From positions 131,817 to 195,816 of the forward strand of contig JAURFW010000002.1 of the NCBI GenBank assembly GCA_030834125.1: 64,000 nt of DNA, in the 5' to 3' direction. The notes beneath the pieces were generated by a model. It did no database searches and was not told the origin of the DNA. It saw nothing but the letters and a program-made list of their open reading frames with translations. The translations under genes and the position numbers were made by a program. The stretch is from Bacteroidota bacterium (GTDB taxonomy: Bacteria > Bacteroidota > Bacteroidia > NS11-12g > UBA955). Of the stretch, positions 3,057-47,163 are shown one piece after another. The first letter of the stretch is position 1, and every line of letters begins with the position of its first letter.

Positions 3057-5693
3057 ATGAGCATTTCCTCACTAGAAATCAAACAGCAATTCTTGGACTT
3101 CTTTGCATCAAAAGGACATAAAATAGTACCTTCTGCACCTATTGTAGTAAAAGGTGATCCAACACTGATGTTTACAAATGCCGGAATGAATCAGTTTAAG
3201 GATTTCTTTTTGGGAAATGAAACAACTCAAGAAAAGCGCATTGCAGACAGTCAGAAATGTCTTAGAGTAAGTGGAAAGCATAATGACTTAGATGAGGTAG
3301 GACATGACCACTATCATCATACTATGTTTGAGATGCTCGGGAATTGGTCATTCGGAGATTATTTCAAAAAAGAGGCAATAGAATGGGCCTGGGAACTACT
3401 TACTGATGTTTACAAACTGCCGGCAGATAGGTTGTATGTTACAGTTTTTGAGGGTAGTAAAGAAGAGAATATTCCTTTTGACCAGGAAGCTTTTGATATT
3501 TGGTCCAAACTTTTACCCAAAGAGAGGATACTAAATGGTAATAAAAAGGATAATTTCTGGGAGATGGGTGAAACTGGACCTTGCGGACCCTGCACAGAAA
3601 TTCATATCGACCTTAGGTCTGAGGAAGAAATAAAGAATATTTCAGGTGCAGTTTTGGTAAATGCCGACCATCCAGAAGTTATGGAGATTTGGAATAATGT
3701 ATTCATGGAATTTAACAGGATGGCTGATGGTTCATTGGTTAATTTACCTGAAAAACATGTAGATACGGGAATGGGTTTTGAGCGTTTAGTAAGAGTTATT
3801 CAAAATAAAAAATCTAATTACGATACGGATATTTTCAGTTTTATTATTGAAGAAACTTCAAAGCTATCCAATATAAAGTATGGAGAAGTAGAAAATCAGG
3901 ATATTGCATTTCGTGTAATTGCCGATCATATTCGCGCAGTTGTAATGGTAATTGCCGATGGACAAATTCCTTCAAATACAGGTGCGGGATATGTTGTTCG
4001 AAGAATATTAAGAAGGGCCGTTAGATATGGTTATAGCTACTTAAATCTTCAGCAACCATTTATGAACCAATTGGTGGTTTCTTTGGCAGAGTATTTCAAG
4101 GAATCTTATCCAGAAGTAATTAAGCAAACTGATTTTATTGCTAAAGTTATTAAAGAGGAAGAAACGGCATTTTTCAGAACATTAAGTACGGGTATTCAAA
4201 AGCTTTCTGCATACTTTGATCAATTTGGCAAGAAAGAAATTGAAGGTTCTGTTGCCTTTGAGCTTTATGATACGTATGGATTTCCAATTGACTTAACAGA
4301 GATTATCGCTCGTGAAAATGGAGTAGAGGTGGATTTAAAAGAATTTGAAAAAGCCTTAACTGAACAAAAAAACAGATCCAAAAACGATGCTAAAAAAGAC
4401 TTAGGAGATTGGAATTGGGTTATGGAAAATTCCACCGAAGATTTTGTTGGGTATGATGAAACAAAAACTAAAACCCATATTAGTCGTTGGAGAGAGGTCT
4501 CACAAAAAGGGAAGACATATTTTCAGTATGTATTGGTAAATTCTCCCTTTTATGCCGAAAGTGGCGGTCAAGTAGGGGATAAAGGAAAACTTACTAATCT
4601 ATCCGGTGATGAAGTGTTTATAATTGACACTCAAAAGGATAATAAGCTTCATGTGTTATTGTCTACAAAGATGATATCTAATCCGCAGGAGGAAATTATT
4701 GCTGAAGTTAATGTTGAGAGAAGAAATGATATCAGAAAGAATCACTCTGCAACGCATTTAATGCATAGCGCATTACGCCAAGTTTTAGGCGATCATGTTG
4801 CGCAAAAAGGTAGTTTGGTCAATGATGAAGTATTGCGATTTGACTTTTCTCACTTTGGAAAAATGACAGATGATGAACTAAAGAGAGTTGAGGAAATTGT
4901 AAACAATAAAATATCAGCTTCAATACCATTAAATGAGTATCGCGATATTCCAATTGAGGAAGCGAAACAAATGGGTGCAACTGCTCTTTTTGGAGAGAAG
5001 TATGGAAATAAAGTAAGAGTTATTGAGTTTGATAGAGAATTTTCAATAGAGTTATGCGGCGGAACCCATGTTGAGAACACGCGCGATATAGGTTATTTTA
5101 AACTTATGTCTGAAGGTAGTGTTAGTTCAGGAATACGAAGAATAGAAGCAATTACTGGTTCTAAAGCAATGGAGTTTTTAAATTCCCAAACTCAAGAACT
5201 TCAAAGCATCAAGATGTTGCTGAATAACCCTAAAAATGCCGTTGATGCGGTGGAGAAGCTACTTGAACAAAATAATAATCTTCAAAAACAGATTCAAAAT
5301 TTCCAACAAGAACAGGCCAAAGTAATAAAGACTGAGTTAGAATCAATGGTTTCAAAAGTGGGAACGGTTAATACATTATTTACCGTTGTTGATTTATATT
5401 CTGCCGAAGATGCTAAAAATATATGTTTCCAATTAAAGCAACAATTTGATCCGTTTATTGGTGCAATTGGTTATCGCGTTGATGGAAAGCCGGGTATTAC
5501 AATAATAGTATCTGAAAGTCTTGTGGAAAGCCTAGAAGTTAATGCATCTAATCTTGTTAGAAGCTGTGGTAAATATATTCAGGGTGGTGGAGGCGGACAA
5601 GCGTTTTTCGCTTCTGCAGGAGGTAAAAATGTTGAAGGGCTTGAGGATGCTGTGAATTTTGCAAAAGGAGAAATTACCCCTCGATTGAAATAA
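3057..5693 (+). CDS. alaS: alanine--tRNA ligase
   Basis: Class II AlaRS core (FTNAGMNQFK, HHTMFEMLGNWSFGDYFK), an editing domain and a C-terminal DHHA1-like GGGGGQ region. A TATCTTTG -7 element at 3043-3050 sits just upstream of the ATG at 3057, favouring that start over the track ATG at 3039. Confidence 0.93.
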   Translation: MSISSLEIKQQFLDFFASKGHKIVPSAPIVVKGDPTLMFTNAGMNQFKDFFLGNETTQEKRIADSQKCLRVSGKHNDLDEVGHDHYHHTMFEMLGNWSFGDYFKKEAIEWAWELLTDVYKLPADRLYVTVFEGSKEENIPFDQEAFDIWSKLLPKERILNGNKKDNFWEMGETGPCGPCTEIHIDLRSEEEIKNISGAVLVNADHPEVMEIWNNVFMEFNRMADGSLVNLPEKHVDTGMGFERLVRVIQNKKSNYDTDIFSFIIEETSKLSNIKYGEVENQDIAFRVIADHIRAVVMVIADGQIPSNTGAGYVVRRILRRAVRYGYSYLNLQQPFMNQLVVSLAEYFKESYPEVIKQTDFIAKVIKEEETAFFRTLSTGIQKLSAYFDQFGKKEIEGSVAFELYDTYGFPIDLTEIIARENGVEVDLKEFEKALTEQKNRSKNDAKKDLGDWNWVMENSTEDFVGYDETKTKTHISRWREVSQKGKTYFQYVLVNSPFYAESGGQVGDKGKLTNLSGDEVFIIDTQKDNKLHVLLSTKMISNPQEEIIAEVNVERRNDIRKNHSATHLMHSALRQVLGDHVAQKGSLVNDEVLRFDFSHFGKMTDDELKRVEEIVNNKISASIPLNEYRDIPIEEAKQMGATALFGEKYGNKVRVIEFDREFSIELCGGTHVENTRDIGYFKLMSEGSVSSGIRRIEAITGSKAMEFLNSQTQELQSIKMLLNNPKNAVDAVEKLLEQNNNLQKQIQNFQQEQAKVIKTELESMVSKVGTVNTLFTVVDLYSAEDAKNICFQLKQQFDPFIGAIGYRVDGKPGITIIVSESLVESLEVNASNLVRSCGKYIQGGGGGQAFFASAGGKNVEGLEDAVNFAKGEITPRLK

Positions 5694-10671: not shown

Positions 10672-12141
10672 ATGAAAAACACAATCAAATCAACAATTAT
10701 ACTTTCTGTATTATCCATTTCAGTTTTTACATTGAATTCTTGTAGAAAAGATTTTTTAGAAGAAGAGCCTAGGGTACAAACGATAGAGGATTATTTTACC
10801 ACCTCAAATCAAGCTGCAAGAGAAATGGTAAATGCTATCTACAACAAGCTATATGATTGGAATTTACATAGTTTCCCATTTATTGGAATGACCGAAATTG
10901 CAGGTGATAATACCTCAAAAGGTTCAGATGCGGGAGATACAGGAGGAGATAAGGATCAAATGGATGGTTATTTTTTCGCTCCAACTTCAATTTCATTCGG
11001 TGATGTTTGGAGCGGCTATTTCGAAGCAATTGCAAGGGCAAATAAAGCCATTAAATATGTTGATGAATTAGATATCCCTCAATCAAATAAAAACCAATAC
11101 ATAGCAGAAGCAAGATTTCTTAGAGGTTATTTCTATTTCTTTTTAGTTAGAAGTTTTGGTGGTGTACCGTTAATTGATAAAGTACCAATTACAGAAGAAG
11201 AAATTGCAAATACATATGTTCGCGCTTCTGAAGATAAAATATATGACCTCATTGAGTCGGATTTTCAATTTGCCACACAGTTGCCAGCAAAACAATTAAT
11301 AGATTTAGGAAGAGCAAGTGGCGACGCTGCTACAGCAATGTTGGCAAAGGTTGCCTTGTACAGAAAAAACTGGGGATTATGTGCAAATTATTGTTCTAAT
11401 CTAATTTCCTCTGGGCAATATAACTTAGTGAAAGATTATTCTCACATTTGGAGAGAAATTGGAGAATTTTCTGAAGAGTCTATATGGGAAGTTAATTGCA
11501 AAGGAACAGATCCACAAAAAGGAATACTCCAGTATTATGTAGTACAAGCACCAAGAGGTGGAGCAAAAGGTTTAGGGTGGGGATTCAATACTCCAACCCA
11601 AGATTTTTATGATGCCTATGAAGCTGGAGATTTGCGCAGAGATGCTTCAATTATTAAGTCAGGGCAAACACTATGGGATGGATGGGAAACCGATGCCGGA
11701 CATTCAAATCCCTTGTATAATTATAAATCTTATGTAAGCAAAATTGCTGAATCATGGGGTCAAGGAGACGTTAATGCAAATAAGAATTTACGTGTGATTC
11801 GTTATGGTGAAATATTATTGATTGCCGCAGAGGCCGCCAATGAATTAGGCGATCAAACTACGGCTTGCAATTACTTAAATCAAATTAGAAGCAGAGCGGG
11901 TCTCGCTGATTTTAATTCAAACGATGCCGATTCTGTTAGAAATGCAATTTGGAAAGAGCGTAGATTTGAACTTGCGTTTGAACATGATCGCGTATTTGAT
12001 TTGCGAAGACAAGGTAGAATAGGTGATGTAATACGAGCAAATAATATTAACTTTATAGACGGTAAACATGAACTTTACCCAATTCCCCAAAGGCAAGTAG
12101 ATTTGAGTGAAGGAAAAATGTTACAAAACCCTGGATATTAA
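10672..12141 (+). CDS. SusD/RagB-family nutrient-binding outer-membrane lipoprotein
   Basis: A lipoprotein signal ending in LNSC sits directly downstream of SusC, and a TPR-like SusD fold is present. The ATG at 10672 (MKNTIKST...) is preferred over the track start at 10642, which overlaps SusC. Confidence 0.88.
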   Translation: MKNTIKSTIILSVLSISVFTLNSCRKDFLEEEPRVQTIEDYFTTSNQAAREMVNAIYNKLYDWNLHSFPFIGMTEIAGDNTSKGSDAGDTGGDKDQMDGYFFAPTSISFGDVWSGYFEAIARANKAIKYVDELDIPQSNKNQYIAEARFLRGYFYFFLVRSFGGVPLIDKVPITEEEIANTYVRASEDKIYDLIESDFQFATQLPAKQLIDLGRASGDAATAMLAKVALYRKNWGLCANYCSNLISSGQYNLVKDYSHIWREIGEFSEESIWEVNCKGTDPQKGILQYYVVQAPRGGAKGLGWGFNTPTQDFYDAYEAGDLRRDASIIKSGQTLWDGWETDAGHSNPLYNYKSYVSKIAESWGQGDVNANKNLRVIRYGEILLIAAEAANELGDQTTACNYLNQIRSRAGLADFNSNDADSVRNAIWKERRFELAFEHDRVFDLRRQGRIGDVIRANNINFIDGKHELYPIPQRQVDLSEGKMLQNPGY

Positions 12142-42199: not shown

Positions 42200-43622
42200 T
42201 TTTTACTATTTTGAGATTACCCAATTTACCTGAATCTGTATAGTTTAGAATAAATTTCATTTCAGAATTATTGTTAGAGACTTTATTCCAACTAGACCTA
42301 CTGATATGATTATTGTTGGCTTGAATTAGAAAAGAATTATAATTATTTAAATCAGATATTACTGAGTCTGATCCGATAAAAAAATTGTTTTCTTTATTGA
42401 TTTTCGAAAAATATTCGCAATAATTCACATACAAATGTGCGTCGTCTCCAAAAATATGAATACTATCATAATTTGTGTTCTCCGTTATGAAATTATTCAC
42501 AACAGACAATCTATGAATGCCGTGCTTTGATTCAGGGTAAATAAACTGACTGACATTCCAACAGATAATTCCAAAAACCAAGATTGAACTTCCTTTTAAC
42601 ACTTTTTGAGCTGGCATACCCAATACTAGCAAGAAAGGCAACATCACCATAAACTCAATATTTCCCACTGAATAAACTGCGAAAGATATAAATAAAAGTA
42701 TAGTAAAAAGATAGGTGTTTTTTAAGGGGAGTTTTTTTAGAGAAATTGATTTTTCCTTAGTGTAAACAACAATTCCAACAGCAATTATCAACATTGAAAC
42801 TATACCAAAACCGCTAAGAATTGGATTCCAAATATTCCAATAAACTAAAAGGTCGGGATGAACTTGAGTAATTGATCTAATTAAGTTAACTCCACTAAAG
42901 AATATATTCTTGCTTGAAAAGCTTGTAGTAACCAAACCTGCATTCACATCTTGGAAGACTATATCAAATAAGGGTACTTCCAACCATAGTGAAGCTGTAA
43001 TATATCCAAAAATCGGAATGCATATTCCTAAAATAAATGCAGAGATATTTTTACTCTTTATAAATTCAACTATCCACAAGCCAATTAACCAAAAAATGTG
43101 AATCTGATGAAATAGGCATGCAAATCCTAACCAAATTGCAGCAGTATAAAATTTTTGTTTTTCAAAATAAAGAGAACCAAGTAAAGATAGAAATATAGGG
43201 ACTGTATATGCTTCTACTTGAAATGAATATTTTAAAAATACAAAAGTGCCCATCAAAAATAAAGTGGCTGTATTGATAGCCGGAAAATCCCAATTTCTAT
43301 TTACAAGAATGCGTTTTAATACGTATAATGACAATATCGCAAAAATCAGATTAATTGAGGTAAATAATATTAATGGGCTAATTTTATTGCTGAATATTGA
43401 AATAAATTGAAACAAACCCCAAAACAATGGTTTGTGAAGAAGATGGTGTGCAGAGAATAATTCTCCATCTAGTATTTCGCAAGAATAGCCATAAGAATCA
43501 CCAGTAAATTCAAGAGGTATAAAAGTGTATCTTAAAGCAATAAATATTACAACTATTATTATCCAGTAAGTTGGCCGATTGAACATTAAGCAAATATAGG
43601 TAGTAGTAATAATTGTTTTCAT
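42189..43622 (-). CDS. polytopic membrane protein, possibly a GT-C-like glycosyltransferase or polymerase; function unknown
   Basis: More than 10 predicted transmembrane helices plus a C-terminal soluble region of about 100 aa. The track starts at a TTG (43628); the in-frame ATG at 43622 (MKTIIT) is preferred. Confidence 0.5.
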   Translation of the reverse strand: MKTIITTTYICLMFNRPTYWIIIVVIFIALRYTFIPLEFTGDSYGYSCEILDGELFSAHHLLHKPLFWGLFQFISIFSNKISPLILFTSINLIFAILSLYVLKRILVNRNWDFPAINTATLFLMGTFVFLKYSFQVEAYTVPIFLSLLGSLYFEKQKFYTAAIWLGFACLFHQIHIFWLIGLWIVEFIKSKNISAFILGICIPIFGYITASLWLEVPLFDIVFQDVNAGLVTTSFSSKNIFFSGVNLIRSITQVHPDLLVYWNIWNPILSGFGIVSMLIIAVGIVVYTKEKSISLKKLPLKNTYLFTILLFISFAVYSVGNIEFMVMLPFLLVLGMPAQKVLKGSSILVFGIICWNVSQFIYPESKHGIHRLSVVNNFITENTNYDSIHIFGDDAHLYVNYCEYFSKINKENNFFIGSDSVISDLNNYNSFLIQANNNHISRSSWNKVSNNNSEMKFILNYTDSGKLGNLKIVKITN

Positions 43623-43634
43623 TTTCAATCACTC

Positions 43635-43648: not shown

Positions 43649-45052
43649 TTGAGTTTTCCCAAATTAGAAATATTTAAGCTTTTAGCAGAAACGGCAAATG
43701 AATTAGAAATTAAGTCATATGTTGTAGGTGGCTATGTACGAGATTTATTATTAAAAATTCCGAGTAAGGATATTGATATAGTGGTTATTGGTTCTGGTGT
43801 TGATTTTGCACAGGCTTTACATCAAAAAATGGATGGGGCGTCTATTTCAGTGTTTAAAAATTTTGGCACAGCTCAAATAAAGTATGAGGATTATATTGTA
43901 GAAATAATAGGAGCTAGGAAAGAAAGTTACCGAAGGGATAGCCGAAAGCCATTAGTTGAAGATGGAACATTAGAGGATGATCAAAATAGGAGAGACTTCA
44001 CGGTTAATTCATTTTATCTAGGATTGAATTCTGATAATTATGGAGTTTTGGAAGATCCATTTGATGGAATTCAAGACCTCAATAATGGAATTATCAGAAC
44101 TAATACCGACCCTGATAAAACTTTCTCGGATGATCCATTGAGGATGTTACGGGCAATTAGATTCGCGGCTAGGTTTAATTTTACTATTGAAGAGAAAACA
44201 TGGAATGGTATATTGGATAATGCTCATAGAATTGGAATTGTGTCTCAAGAGAGAATAACCGATGAGTTGAACTCAATGATAAGAGGTGATAAACCTTCTA
44301 TTGCGTTTAAATTAATGTTTGATTCAGGCTTGTTACATTACTTTTTCCCTGAAATGGTTGAACTACAAGGAGTAGAAACTATTGACGGTAAGAGTCATAA
44401 AGATAATTTTTACCATACATTACAAGTTTTAGATCAATTATGCCAGTTATCAGAAAATATTTGGCTAAGATGGGCAGCAATTTTACATGATATAGCCAAA
44501 CCAGCTACAAAAAGATTTGATCCCAAAGTAGGTTGGACTTTTCATGGACATGAAGATCGGGGTTCACGAATGGTTAAGGGTATATTTCGCCGGTTAAGGT
44601 TACCACTTGATGAAAAGATGAAATATGTTCAGAAACTTGTAGCGATGCATTTAAGACCTATTGTTTTATCTAAAGATATAGTTACTGATAGTGCAGTGCG
44701 AAGATTAATTGTAGAGGCAGGTAATGACGTTGATGATTTATTGCTGCTTTGTCGGGCTGATATAACATCTAAAAATCAATTTAAAGTAAAAAGACATATT
44801 GAGAATCTTCAAAAAGTAGAACAGAAAATTCAAGAGGTTAGAGAAAAGGATGAACTTAGGAATTGGCAACCTGTAATTACTGGGAACCACATCAAAGGTC
44901 GTTATATGATTGTTAATCCCCGCGATATTGGAATGCTGAAACTAGAACTACGTGAAGCAATTTTATCTGGTGAAGTTAAAAATACTCTGGATGACAGTTT
45001 TAAATTTCTAGATTTATTAGCTGCGGAAAAGGGGATTGAAAGAAAGAAATAA
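43649..45052 (+). CDS. cca: CCA tRNA nucleotidyltransferase / poly(A) polymerase-family protein with an HD domain
   Basis: PolyA_pol head YVVGGYVRDLLL...KDIDIVV and a C-terminal HD region. No in-frame ATG precedes the core. A TATCTTTG -7 element at 43635-43642 predicts a leaderless TTG start at 43649 (MSFPKLEIFKLL...); the track start is the TTG at 43613. Confidence 0.8.
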   Translation: MSFPKLEIFKLLAETANELEIKSYVVGGYVRDLLLKIPSKDIDIVVIGSGVDFAQALHQKMDGASISVFKNFGTAQIKYEDYIVEIIGARKESYRRDSRKPLVEDGTLEDDQNRRDFTVNSFYLGLNSDNYGVLEDPFDGIQDLNNGIIRTNTDPDKTFSDDPLRMLRAIRFAARFNFTIEEKTWNGILDNAHRIGIVSQERITDELNSMIRGDKPSIAFKLMFDSGLLHYFFPEMVELQGVETIDGKSHKDNFYHTLQVLDQLCQLSENIWLRWAAILHDIAKPATKRFDPKVGWTFHGHEDRGSRMVKGIFRRLRLPLDEKMKYVQKLVAMHLRPIVLSKDIVTDSAVRRLIVEAGNDVDDLLLLCRADITSKNQFKVKRHIENLQKVEQKIQEVREKDELRNWQPVITGNHIKGRYMIVNPRDIGMLKLELREAILSGEVKNTLDDSFKFLDLLAAEKGIERKK

Positions 45053-45115
45053 TTATTTTTTTATTGGTTTGCAGTCTTTATTTGAAATGGTAAGTTCATT
45101 TCTTATTTTCTATCT

Positions 45116-45442
45116 CTATCTCAAATATGAAAAATCATTAGGATCAAAAACGTGCTCTTTTACATTTATAATATAACCAGTATCAACACGTTCAAATGAT
45201 TCTACAATAACATTAAATTCACACTTAATAATATGAGACAACATTTGACCTGCTTTAATATAAGGTCCTCCAGAAAGGTCTACGACAACAATTACCTCAT
45301 GATTTGTAGTTCCATCTGGATTTTTCAGCCAACCACAACGATGAAATTCAAAATTACCTTCCCAAAGAACCTTATTTGGTCCTTGTTTAGTAAATGTAAA
45401 AACATCACCATTACGATTTTCGTATTGTGCTACGTTTTCCAT
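45116..45442 (-). CDS. hypothetical protein, 108 aa
   Basis: Clean ORF with no recognisable motif, divergent from the 45660-46765 operon. Confidence 0.5.
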   Translation of the reverse strand: MENVAQYENRNGDVFTFTKQGPNKVLWEGNFEFHRCGWLKNPDGTTNHEVIVVVDLSGGPYIKAGQMLSHIIKCEFNVIVESFERVDTGYIINVKEHVFDPNDFSYLR

Positions 45443-45558
45443 TATTTTTCTATAATTAAAAAATTTCCGAAATAATAATCGGGGATTTGAAGGAATTATT
45501 TCCTTTCCAAGTTTTAACTGATTTTAATGCTTTATTATCATTCATATTATAGTTCTTA

Positions 45559-45625
45559 TTTACATGTAAAAATAATCTTGTTTACATGTAAATATAATCT
45601 TGTTTACAATGTAAATATAATCTTT
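45559..45625. repeat. three tandem 22-23 bp direct repeats, each containing the 12-bp perfect palindrome TTTACATGTAAA (candidate operator array or iterons)
   Basis: The three copies are TTTACATGTAAAAATAATCTTG, TTTACATGTAAATATAATCTTG and TTTACAATGTAAATATAATCTTT, lying head to tail 35-100 bp upstream of the ATG at 45660. Confidence 0.8.
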
Positions 45626-45659
45626 AAGTTTATTATACTTGAATAAAAAAATTGTAGCG

Positions 45660-45938
45660 ATGGATCAAATTTATAAAATCATTGAACTTAAAGTAGATGG
45701 AGGTTCACAGGAGGTTGGCTTAAGAAAAGAAACGTATAAAAATTCAAAGTGGAACAAAGCTGTAAAGGCAGCAGAGAATATTGCAATGAAAGATTTTGAA
45801 GATTTGCTAAATATACATTGTAGAGAAGATAATAATTGGCGTCTAGATTCAATTCAAACAATTCGCTACTTCTGGGGTCCAGGTGAGTATTACAAAACTG
45901 TAATTGTATTAAAGAATTTAGAGCATTTTAAATCGTAA
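45660..45938 (+). CDS. hypothetical protein, 92 aa from the ATG (the track opens at the TTG 45639)
   Basis: An ORF preceded by three tandem 22-23 bp palindrome-containing repeats; no recognisable motif. Confidence 0.5.
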   Translation: MDQIYKIIELKVDGGSQEVGLRKETYKNSKWNKAVKAAENIAMKDFEDLLNIHCREDNNWRLDSIQTIRYFWGPGEYYKTVIVLKNLEHFKS

Positions 45939-45943
45939 GTTAA

Positions 45944-46765
45944 ATGGGGAAAGAACAAATTGTTGTTGCATTAAATAATGAGCCAGAATCCAGTCCAAGT
46001 AAGTATCTTGGTGCGGAGATAGCTATAGGTACACTCACACTAGATAAGATAGCAGAACTCAAAAGTATTCTTCAAAATGGCTTACTTTTTGAAGAAATGG
46101 GAGGCCTTTGGGGTGAAACTTTTAAAGGTTCTGTCTATTTAACTGAACTGATGGATGTAAATGATGAATATCATAAAAATGGATTGATTTTTTATGAAAG
46201 CCTTTATGATAATTGCAGTGATATTAATTTATATTCAACAGAAAACTGGGCCTTTGTTCCTGAAGATAACGAGGATATGCTACCTAATCCAGAATTTAAA
46301 CCACCGGTTAAAATACAAACTAAATCTTCAGAATTTATTGTTTTGTCCATTAGAACTGAAGATCTATATTTTAAAGCTAAAGGGGAACTAAACCCAGAAA
46401 ATAAAATGGTTTTTGACGAAACGAATATAGCAAAATTTAAAATTCAAACGGGAATCGATGAATTTCATTCAATTATGTCTTCCTTTGGCTTTAGTGGTTT
46501 TAATCTTCTACACACAGTATATGCTAATGGAGTTGAATTAGAAAGAGACGAAGATGACATTGAAGAAGCATTTAATATTTACTATTCGTCGCATTTAATT
46601 TTTTCAGAAGGTAAATTAATAGCTTGGTTAGCTACAAATAATCATTCACACCATTTCCCTTTTGATTATTATGAGTCCAAAATACCTTGTATAAGTCCAT
46701 ACCTTATGGAAATGGATCCCGAAACTTATCAATTAGCAATAAATAACTTATTGGAAAACCTTTGA
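45944..46765 (+). CDS. hypothetical acidic protein, 273 aa
   Basis: Lies 5 bp downstream of the previous ORF (operon); no signal peptide, transmembrane segment or known motif. Confidence 0.5.
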   Translation: MGKEQIVVALNNEPESSPSKYLGAEIAIGTLTLDKIAELKSILQNGLLFEEMGGLWGETFKGSVYLTELMDVNDEYHKNGLIFYESLYDNCSDINLYSTENWAFVPEDNEDMLPNPEFKPPVKIQTKSSEFIVLSIRTEDLYFKAKGELNPENKMVFDETNIAKFKIQTGIDEFHSIMSSFGFSGFNLLHTVYANGVELERDEDDIEEAFNIYYSSHLIFSEGKLIAWLATNNHSHHFPFDYYESKIPCISPYLMEMDPETYQLAINNLLENL

Positions 46766-47163
46766 TATTAGAAATCTATTGATTTGTGTTCCTTATGGCG
46801 AGTTGAACCCTCAGTTTAAATTACCCCAGCCTACATTGAAGGAAAGAAAAGAGTATTTTGTATGAGACATTTTTTATTAACAAATGGTCTATCAAACACT
46901 ACTTCTCCACAAAGTATTTTCCTAATTGAACTTGGCAACTGCTGTTTTGAGTACAAAACCTGCCAAGGTTTTGGTGTTGAATATCAATGAATTAACCCAT
47001 ATATTCGATTCCGTCTGATAACTATATTAATCAATTTTTATATTGCAATTATTATTATCTGTGATAATGAATATCACTTTATAAACTAGGTTTGGAAAAA
47101 TTCTGAATAGAAAAAAGCAAAAAATCAATGATAAACATATAAAATTATTGATTTTTGCAGTGT

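Follow-up and report, generated by a model that had tools for sequence, protein, structure and literature searches.

The closest described systems to the locus examined here are flexible genomic islets and phage "morons," the operators of lambdoid phages (OR1-OR2-OR3, between the divergent cI and cro genes), iterons such as the 22-bp repeats of R6K and the 19-bp dyad repeats of the lambda origin, and the hyperplastic regions of T4-type phages, where mobile regulatory cassettes (PeSLs) shuffle small early genes. Here, we analyzed a 64-kb stretch of DNA, referred to as the window (positions 131,817 to 195,816 of contig JAURFW010000002.1), from the chromosome of an uncultured estuarine member of the Bacteroidota. 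The window has a low guanine-plus-cytosine (GC) content of 34.5%. Our subject is an islet of about 2 kb within it, lying between a cca-type gene and serS, which carries three open reading frames (ORFs), p108, p92, and p273, and a short tandem repeat array. We read the islet as a phage-derived mosaic inserted between cca and serS, in which three ORFan genes that move independently are combined with a promoter- or operator-like unit that has recently been duplicated, and we give this reading a probability of roughly 70%.

Like flexible islets and phage morons, the locus occurs in one lineage but not in its sister, is low in GC, carries phage-linked genes and a putative promoter region of its own, and has no housekeeping role. 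Unlike them, it lacks an integrase, a tRNA, or a prophage backbone, and its genes draw on three distinct phage or island gene pools instead of a single recognizable phage. We regard it as an ordinary kind of accessory islet rather than a demonstrable defense or addiction module. It leaves current concepts unchanged and offers a clean example of streamlined aquatic Bacteroidota gaining phage ORFans between core genes.

An islet between cca and serS

The lineage-specific insertion spans positions 45055–47092, where 2,038 bp stand in place of ~19 bp of the cca-serS spacer of the sister lineage. The sister lineage is represented by two contigs (L026 and L027; loci fetched for comparison bear L numbers), which were retrieved by a metagenome scan with the cca protein. 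They share ~89% amino acid identity with the window in cca and serS and ~79–80% DNA identity, and in both contigs serS follows cca after ~95 bp. Using blastn, homology to these contigs ends at position 45054 of the window and restarts at 47093. The inserted segment has a GC fraction of 0.298, the lowest among all segments of 2,038 bp (mean 0.345, standard deviation 0.017). The initial annotation had proposed comparing strains for presence or absence of the genes at this site; the sister lineage has nothing inserted there, so the genes are accessory. Three features by which flexible islets are recognized were found here, namely presence and absence between close relatives with conserved flanks, an atypical base composition (0.298 versus 0.345), and cargo related to phages and mobile elements.

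On the left, the islet is flanked by the cca-type gene (PolyA_pol plus HD), which ends at 45052, and on the right by serS, which starts at 47155 or 47164. Both were assigned by family match, which bears out the earlier placement of the three ORFs between two housekeeping genes. The first ORF, p108 (108 amino acids), lies on the minus strand at 45116–45442 and is separated from the other two by a divergent intergenic region of 217 bp with 19.8% GC (45443–45659). On the plus strand follow p92 (92 amino acids, 45660–45938) and, after a gap of 5 bp, p273 (273 amino acids, 45944–46765). The ATG start of p92 is backed by homologs that open with MDK/QxYKIIEL. The whole arrangement is 100% identical in six contigs from ENA, JGI, and Logan assemblies; therefore, it is not an assembly artifact or a chimera.

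The insertion ends in a non-coding tail of 327 bp (46766–47092), which had no Rfam match at E ≤ 1, an RNA fold z-score of −0.86, and no similarity to any fetched locus. With no tRNA at the site either, we rejected an RNA explanation for the non-coding parts of the islet. A tRNA fragment in the tail was likewise unsupported by Rfam and tRNA searches.

An imperfect 25-bp direct repeat flanks all three genes. Its left copy (45035–45059) covers the last codons and 3' end of cca, and its right copy (46835–46859) begins 70 bp past the p273 stop codon. The copies are identical at 21 of 25 positions, a level reached by none of 300 shuffles, and consist of purine-rich, low-complexity sequence. This repeat is a possible target duplication. 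Under the reading given above, ~2 kb of foreign, phage-derived DNA would have entered the cca-serS spacer, with the 3' end of cca as a possible entry point, and the islet may be what erosion has left of a larger integrated element.

Three gene families with separate distributions

None of the three proteins matched Pfam, NCBIfam, or PADLOC (PADLOC-DB 2.0) at E ≤ 1, no PDB match was obtained by sequence profile, and tblastn against GenBank phage records returned no match for any of them. The initial annotation had found no recognizable family for these ORFs, and this held up in the searches, with only a weak PHROG match for p92. Its remark that no canonical regulator gene is adjacent was also confirmed, as no HTH, RHH, or other DNA-binding domain was found in the three proteins using Pfam, NCBIfam, PHROGs, and PADLOC.

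The distributions of the three families differ. No other fetched locus holds two of the three families, and the 22-bp repeats of the islet accompany none of them elsewhere. The p273 homologs in L007 and L011–L014 have no p92-like neighbor, and the gene that follows the p92 homologs in L021–L023 encodes an 810-amino-acid protein, not p273. Furthermore, the DNA similarity of each islet gene to its relatives is limited to its own coding region. It is chiefly this lack of co-occurrence that speaks against an obligate module or a toxin/immunity pair, and the sequence comparisons suggest that p108, p92, and p273 do not form a co-evolving or obligate functional module. Instead, they appear to be three gene-sized cassettes with separate histories. 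What looked like a three-gene module is resolved into three separate testable objects, namely the p108 family, the p273 family, and the dyad of the repeat array, and it is these that keep some interest. The islet families are candidates for work on phage accessory proteins.

The suggestion that p92 and p273 form an immunity- or antitoxin-type pairing is not supported by these distributions, as the two families are never found together elsewhere. We see no support for a toxin-antitoxin or immunity (addiction) pair, as the pair is not conserved as neighbors and no toxin or antitoxin domain was detected (Pfam, NCBIfam, and PADLOC at E ≤ 1; no PDB match). The broader idea of a novel defense or addiction module fared no better, with neither a PADLOC match nor co-occurrence of the families. 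A known anti-phage defense system was rejected as well, with zero PADLOC-DB 2.0 families for all three proteins at E ≤ 1.

The p108 family is the largest and would represent a widespread small phage protein. It comprises more than 157 clusters at E ≤ 0.01, is strongly conserved with the motifs NRYGDVYTFTKQ, DPSGGPFI-GQMLSH, and NVIVESFE, and was found in 38 IMG/VR contigs. Homologs always lie within arrays of small genes that share one strand, and at least eight different syntenies were seen; such arrays of small phage genes are seen in L015, L018, L066–L103, L114, and L115. In other phage-like contigs, the relatives adjoin genes for DnaB, ribonucleotide reductase, glucosaminidase, QueC/PTPS, ThyX, DUF932, NUDIX, and transaldolase. 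The nearest DNA relative is in L114 (80%), where the match is restricted to the coding part. By family assignment, p108 is a predicted member of this large and highly conserved family of small phage proteins, for which there is no Pfam model; a member-wise Pfam scan at E ≤ 10 gave only noise. A confident structure model predicts an all-beta fold. We considered a PilZ domain, the beta-barrel receptor of cyclic di-GMP, and do not assign p108 to it, as there was no match to Pfam PilZ (PF07238) in 61 family members at E ≤ 10. PilZ domains carry the motifs RxxxR and D/NxSxxG; the p108 family instead conserves NRYGD and DPSGGP. The chromosomal p108 differs from the phage family at three near-invariant positions (Y11N, P56L, and H106Y) and is without the C-terminal IIGGII tail that many phage members have. 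These substitutions and the missing tail may point to relaxed or altered constraint.

The p92 family is rare, with six clusters, and its single weak match in PHROGs is to phrog_33862 (unknown function; E 0.03). The protein is neutral to slightly basic, with an isoelectric point (pI) of 7.8. In L021–L023, the p92 relative is the first gene past a 355-bp divergent spacer. In L021, the homolog is followed by proteins of 810, 165, 525, and 761 amino acids, and a neighbor matches PHROGs 5208 and 7590 (unknown function). Judging from this gene order, the relatives of p92 probably lead a phage-like operon made up of large uncharacterized proteins. IMG/VR yielded no relatives of p92 or p273.

The p273 family consists of 29 clusters at 47–63% identity, with only 37 representatives among 1.84 billion proteins. 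The acidity that the initial annotation had noted is pronounced (pI 4.40 and net charge −28) and extends to the family, with pI values of 4.2–4.7. Members of this rare, strongly acidic family are found in phage-like mosaics and in uncultured Flavobacteriia from marine and estuarine habitats. In L012, a p273 homolog stands alone between ubiA and tRNA-Leu(CAA)/prs; in L013, one stands alone after a GT9 gene; in L014, one lies within an island that starts after tRNA-Leu(CAA). In L007 and L011, the homologs belong to mosaics that also carry a phage-type ATP-dependent DNA ligase, endonuclease VII, and phrog_21942, and the L014 setting is a phage-like mosaic as well. L012 and L013, two different species genomes, share a 912-bp p273 unit (L012:9933-10844 and L013:9935-10844) that is 95.7% identical and has unrelated flanks. 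The unit consists of the gene with ~65 bp upstream and ~16 bp downstream. Therefore, p273 travels as a single-gene unit, and we propose that it would be an acidic mobile gene of marine Flavobacteriia islands and phage-like mosaics.

Several further observations concern p273 and its relatives. In L012, the unit abuts the 3' end of tRNA-Leu(CAA) (10832-10915, minus strand). L013 has no tRNA there and retains ~13–15 nt identical to the tRNA-Leu 3' end (TGTACTCAAGGTGG), which looks like an att-site remnant. In L014, a separate 86-amino-acid ORF (L014:7561-7821), 200 bp past the full-length copy, corresponds to the first 80 residues of the p273 family at ~48% identity, and a profile search also yields many short N-terminal-only representatives. 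This suggests that the N-terminal part is a separable domain or is frequently truncated.

A confident AlphaFold2 model of p273 had no fold match in the PDB. A Foldseek search of BFVD returned only five uncharacterized proteins of uncultured tailed phages (E 1e-5 to 8e-4, TM 0.3–0.5). A member-wise Pfam scan of the family at E ≤ 10 gave noise only, and a look for fused domains in remote relatives produced one protein with BRCT plus DUF4116 (E 6.5e-5), which was uninformative. The acidity of p273 is compatible with a phage accessory factor of the protein- or DNA-mimic type, which we offer as a lead and not as a result.

The phage-like mosaics that hold p273 homologs also contain an upstream cassette of ~40 bp, TTAATAAAAGAAGTTTAAAACCATAAATTAACAATATG, directly before the ATG of several unrelated small genes (L007:2454-2508 and 3169-3225; L011:3525-3579 and 5142-5196). 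The likeness to the PeSLs of T4-type phages is that gene-sized units with short upstream signals occur in varied neighborhoods, as seen for p273 in L007, L011, and L014 (the ~40-bp cassette) and for p108 in its different syntenies. However, the islet is without that cassette sequence and resides in a bacterial chromosome, not a phage.

The repeat array and its candidate promoter

The divergent intergenic region contains a 71-bp tandem array (45554–45624) made up of 3.2 copies of the 22-bp unit TCTTGTTTACATGTAAATATAA (Tandem Repeats Finder, 93% matches, score 119). No other tandem array in the window scores above 51. The 22-bp period agrees with the spacing of about two helical turns described in the initial annotation. 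The array itself is real, as that annotation had it, but a perfect palindrome is not present in each of the three repeats. Dyads 1 (45559–45570) and 2 (45581–45592) are perfect copies of TTTACATGTAAA, and dyad 3 (45603–45615) is TTTACAATGTAAA, in which a 1-nt insertion breaks the symmetry. The dyads, starting at 45559, 45581, and 45603, are thus spaced by 22 and 22–23 bp. A single inserted base is all that separates units 2 and 3; unit 1 has two differing positions, and these counts include the spacers. Since the spacers are conserved like the half-sites, recent duplication of a 22-bp unit suffices to account for the two-turn phasing, with no need for selection. We propose that the array would have arisen by tandem duplication of one unit that carried a 12-bp dyad and a −7-like promoter box.

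The same near-identity of the units, spacers included, is what a functionless slippage product would leave, with a neutral and recent origin by tandem duplication within AT-rich non-coding DNA and an incidental palindrome. Perfect 12-bp palindromes are common in the window (22 in all), so a single one is not unusual, and none of the three gene families retains the array elsewhere. It is the tandem arrangement that is unusual, however, as this is the sole array of such strength in 64 kb. It is also identical in the six independent assemblies, and pairs of TTTACATGTAAA in phage non-coding DNA are commoner than composition predicts, on a rough estimate. We therefore consider a neutral origin unlikely, though still worth keeping in view.

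For the promoter, flavobacterial sigmaA is described as recognizing a −7 box, TAnnTTTG, at −12 to −5, with a median 5' untranslated region of 24 nt (PMC9723704). By regex scan, the best candidate for a −7 box of p92-p273 is TATACTTG on the plus strand at 45634–45641, 18 nt before the p92 ATG. The same scan found −7-like boxes, TAATCTTG, inside the repeats at 45573–45580 and 45595–45602. If the −7 box is set at −12 to −5 (PMC9723704), dyads 1 and 2 fall at about −26 to −15 of the TAATCTTG boxes and dyad 3 at about −43 to −31 of the TATACTTG box. A dimer bound at these positions would interfere with polymerase. Tandem sigmaA promoters were considered and rejected, as the TAATCTTG boxes are poorly spaced, only 14 nt from the preceding TTG; we kept them as a weak component only.

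Three dyads at this spacing between divergent genes resemble the layout of lambda OR. As in the lambdoid OR1-OR2-OR3, they lie ~22–24 bp apart, center to center, and overlap candidate promoter elements; unlike there, the flanking genes are not recognizable HTH repressors, and the sites are near-identical duplicates of a unit, not diverged operators of graded affinity. Several dyads in helical phase are what a repressor-operator region would have, where we infer the overlap with the promoter from the −7-like boxes. No adjacent gene for a DNA-binding repressor was found, with no such domain in the three proteins and an all-beta model for p108.

The layout of three dyads 22–23 bp apart, center to center, between divergent genes would also suit a self-contained regulated cassette, in which one small protein, most likely p92, is an autoregulator with a new fold that binds the dyads cooperatively and controls an acidic effector, p273, acting as a DNA mimic, an anti-restriction protein, or a superinfection-exclusion protein. 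The 5-bp gap between the genes and the contrast between a p92 pI of 7.8 and the very acidic p273 (4.4; family 4.2–4.7) fit this idea. Yet such dyads are missing upstream of the p92 relatives (no TTTACATGTAAA-type site in the 355-bp spacer of L021–L023), p273 relatives are never seen with a p92-like neighbor, no DNA-binding domain was detected in the three proteins, and the conserved spacers indicate recent duplication, not diverged operators. We consider it improbable.

The array is plausible as an orphan operator for a regulator acting in trans. It would then serve as the promoter and operator of a p92-p273 transcript, with dyads placed where a dimeric regulator encoded elsewhere, by host or phage, would occlude the promoter. 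A stronger version holds that the islet is a working phage-derived cassette, with the array as the operator of a repressor encoded elsewhere or of a new p92 DNA-binding fold, and with p273 as a new, very acidic family that hops between marine Flavobacteriia chromosomes and phages and serves as a DNA mimic in anti-defense or superinfection exclusion. The odds seem to us long on this stronger version.

Several points weigh against our reading of the islet as an inserted, phage-derived mosaic with a promoter- or operator-like unit. The insertion site lacks an integrase, a transposase, and a tRNA. The 25-bp direct repeat is of the purine-rich, low-complexity kind, and the 233 bp to its right are likewise unmatched in the relatives. 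An insertion is favored over a deletion in the sister lineage by gene content and GC, not by an outgroup, and remoter relatives are not syntenic at cca-serS. As for the promoter, the spacer has only TAnnCTTG variants, with C in place of the consensus T in all −7-like boxes, and no well-spaced −33 TTG was found. Finally, p92 and p273 are probably co-transcribed here, being 5 bp apart, and a local functional link between them could exist.

The TTTACATGTAAA dyad beyond the islet

Paired TTTACATGTAAA sites are present in 12 IMG/VR contigs, with spacings of 0, 0, 2, 8, 8, 10, 10, 15, 16, 19, 21, and 21 nt, so that 2 of the 12 share the 10-nt spacing of the islet. A rough estimate gives ~0.04 pairs expected per spacing in ~1e11 AT-rich bases, compared with 12 observed over 31 spacings. 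In IMG/VR phage contigs, both AT-rich and GC-neutral, perfect TTTACATGTAAA pairs form part of dense TTTACA(T)/TGTAAA clusters in non-coding DNA (L107:350-520, L113:9130-9300, and L025:6560-6620), which may represent operator or origin fields. A homologous gene of ~120–130 amino acids lies nearby in both L025 and L107. The dyad thus recurs, paired or clustered, in non-coding DNA of unrelated AT-rich phages. We regard it as a candidate for a recurrent phage-type protein-binding motif, whose binder is not recognizably encoded in the islet.

These phage fields bring to mind the relic of a phage or plasmid replication origin, in which the repeats would be iterons with an internal dyad and the initiator gene would have been lost. 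Given the general properties of iterons, the fit is reasonable in unit length, head-to-tail order, whole-unit conservation, and an AT-rich setting (19.8% GC); direct repeats of ~17–22 bp in helical phase are the rule there, and the islet has ~22-bp direct repeats in helical phase with internal dyads. The 12 IMG/VR contigs with paired TTTACATGTAAA, several of them in dense TTTACA(T) fields (L107, L113, and L025), speak for it too. However, no Rep or initiator-like protein is encoded in the islet or beside the repeats, there are three copies only, and a chromosomal islet needs no origin. In addition, the spacings of the phage pairs are scattered (0–21 nt), and the genes near the phage arrays are unrelated to p92, p108, and p273. 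We rate an origin relic as very improbable.

Known regulators were compared with the dyad as well. The TyrR site is TGTAAA-N6-TTTACA, and neither the TyrR nor the BirA-type spacing fits. A literature string search for the TTTACATGTAAA dyad found nothing relevant. The non-canonical LexA (SOS) boxes of Bacteroidetes are GGA-N5-TCC or CTAA-N5-TTAG palindromes (PMC8565304), and these motifs do not match TTTACATGTAAA.

Elsewhere in the window, TTACAATGTAA occurs just once more, at 1048–1058, where it matches the core of repeat copy 3 exactly. Another perfect dyad, AAGGAA-TTAT-TTCCTT, was read from the sequence at 45490–45505, between the p108 start and the 22-bp array. Upstream of the islet, an overlap of 16 bp (43613–43628) arises if the longest ORF is taken for both the cca-type gene (plus strand, with a TTG start at 43613) and a divergent membrane protein of 479 amino acids (minus strand, ending at 43628). 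The real starts of both genes are probably further in, and the gene call in L001 gives 465 amino acids for the membrane protein.

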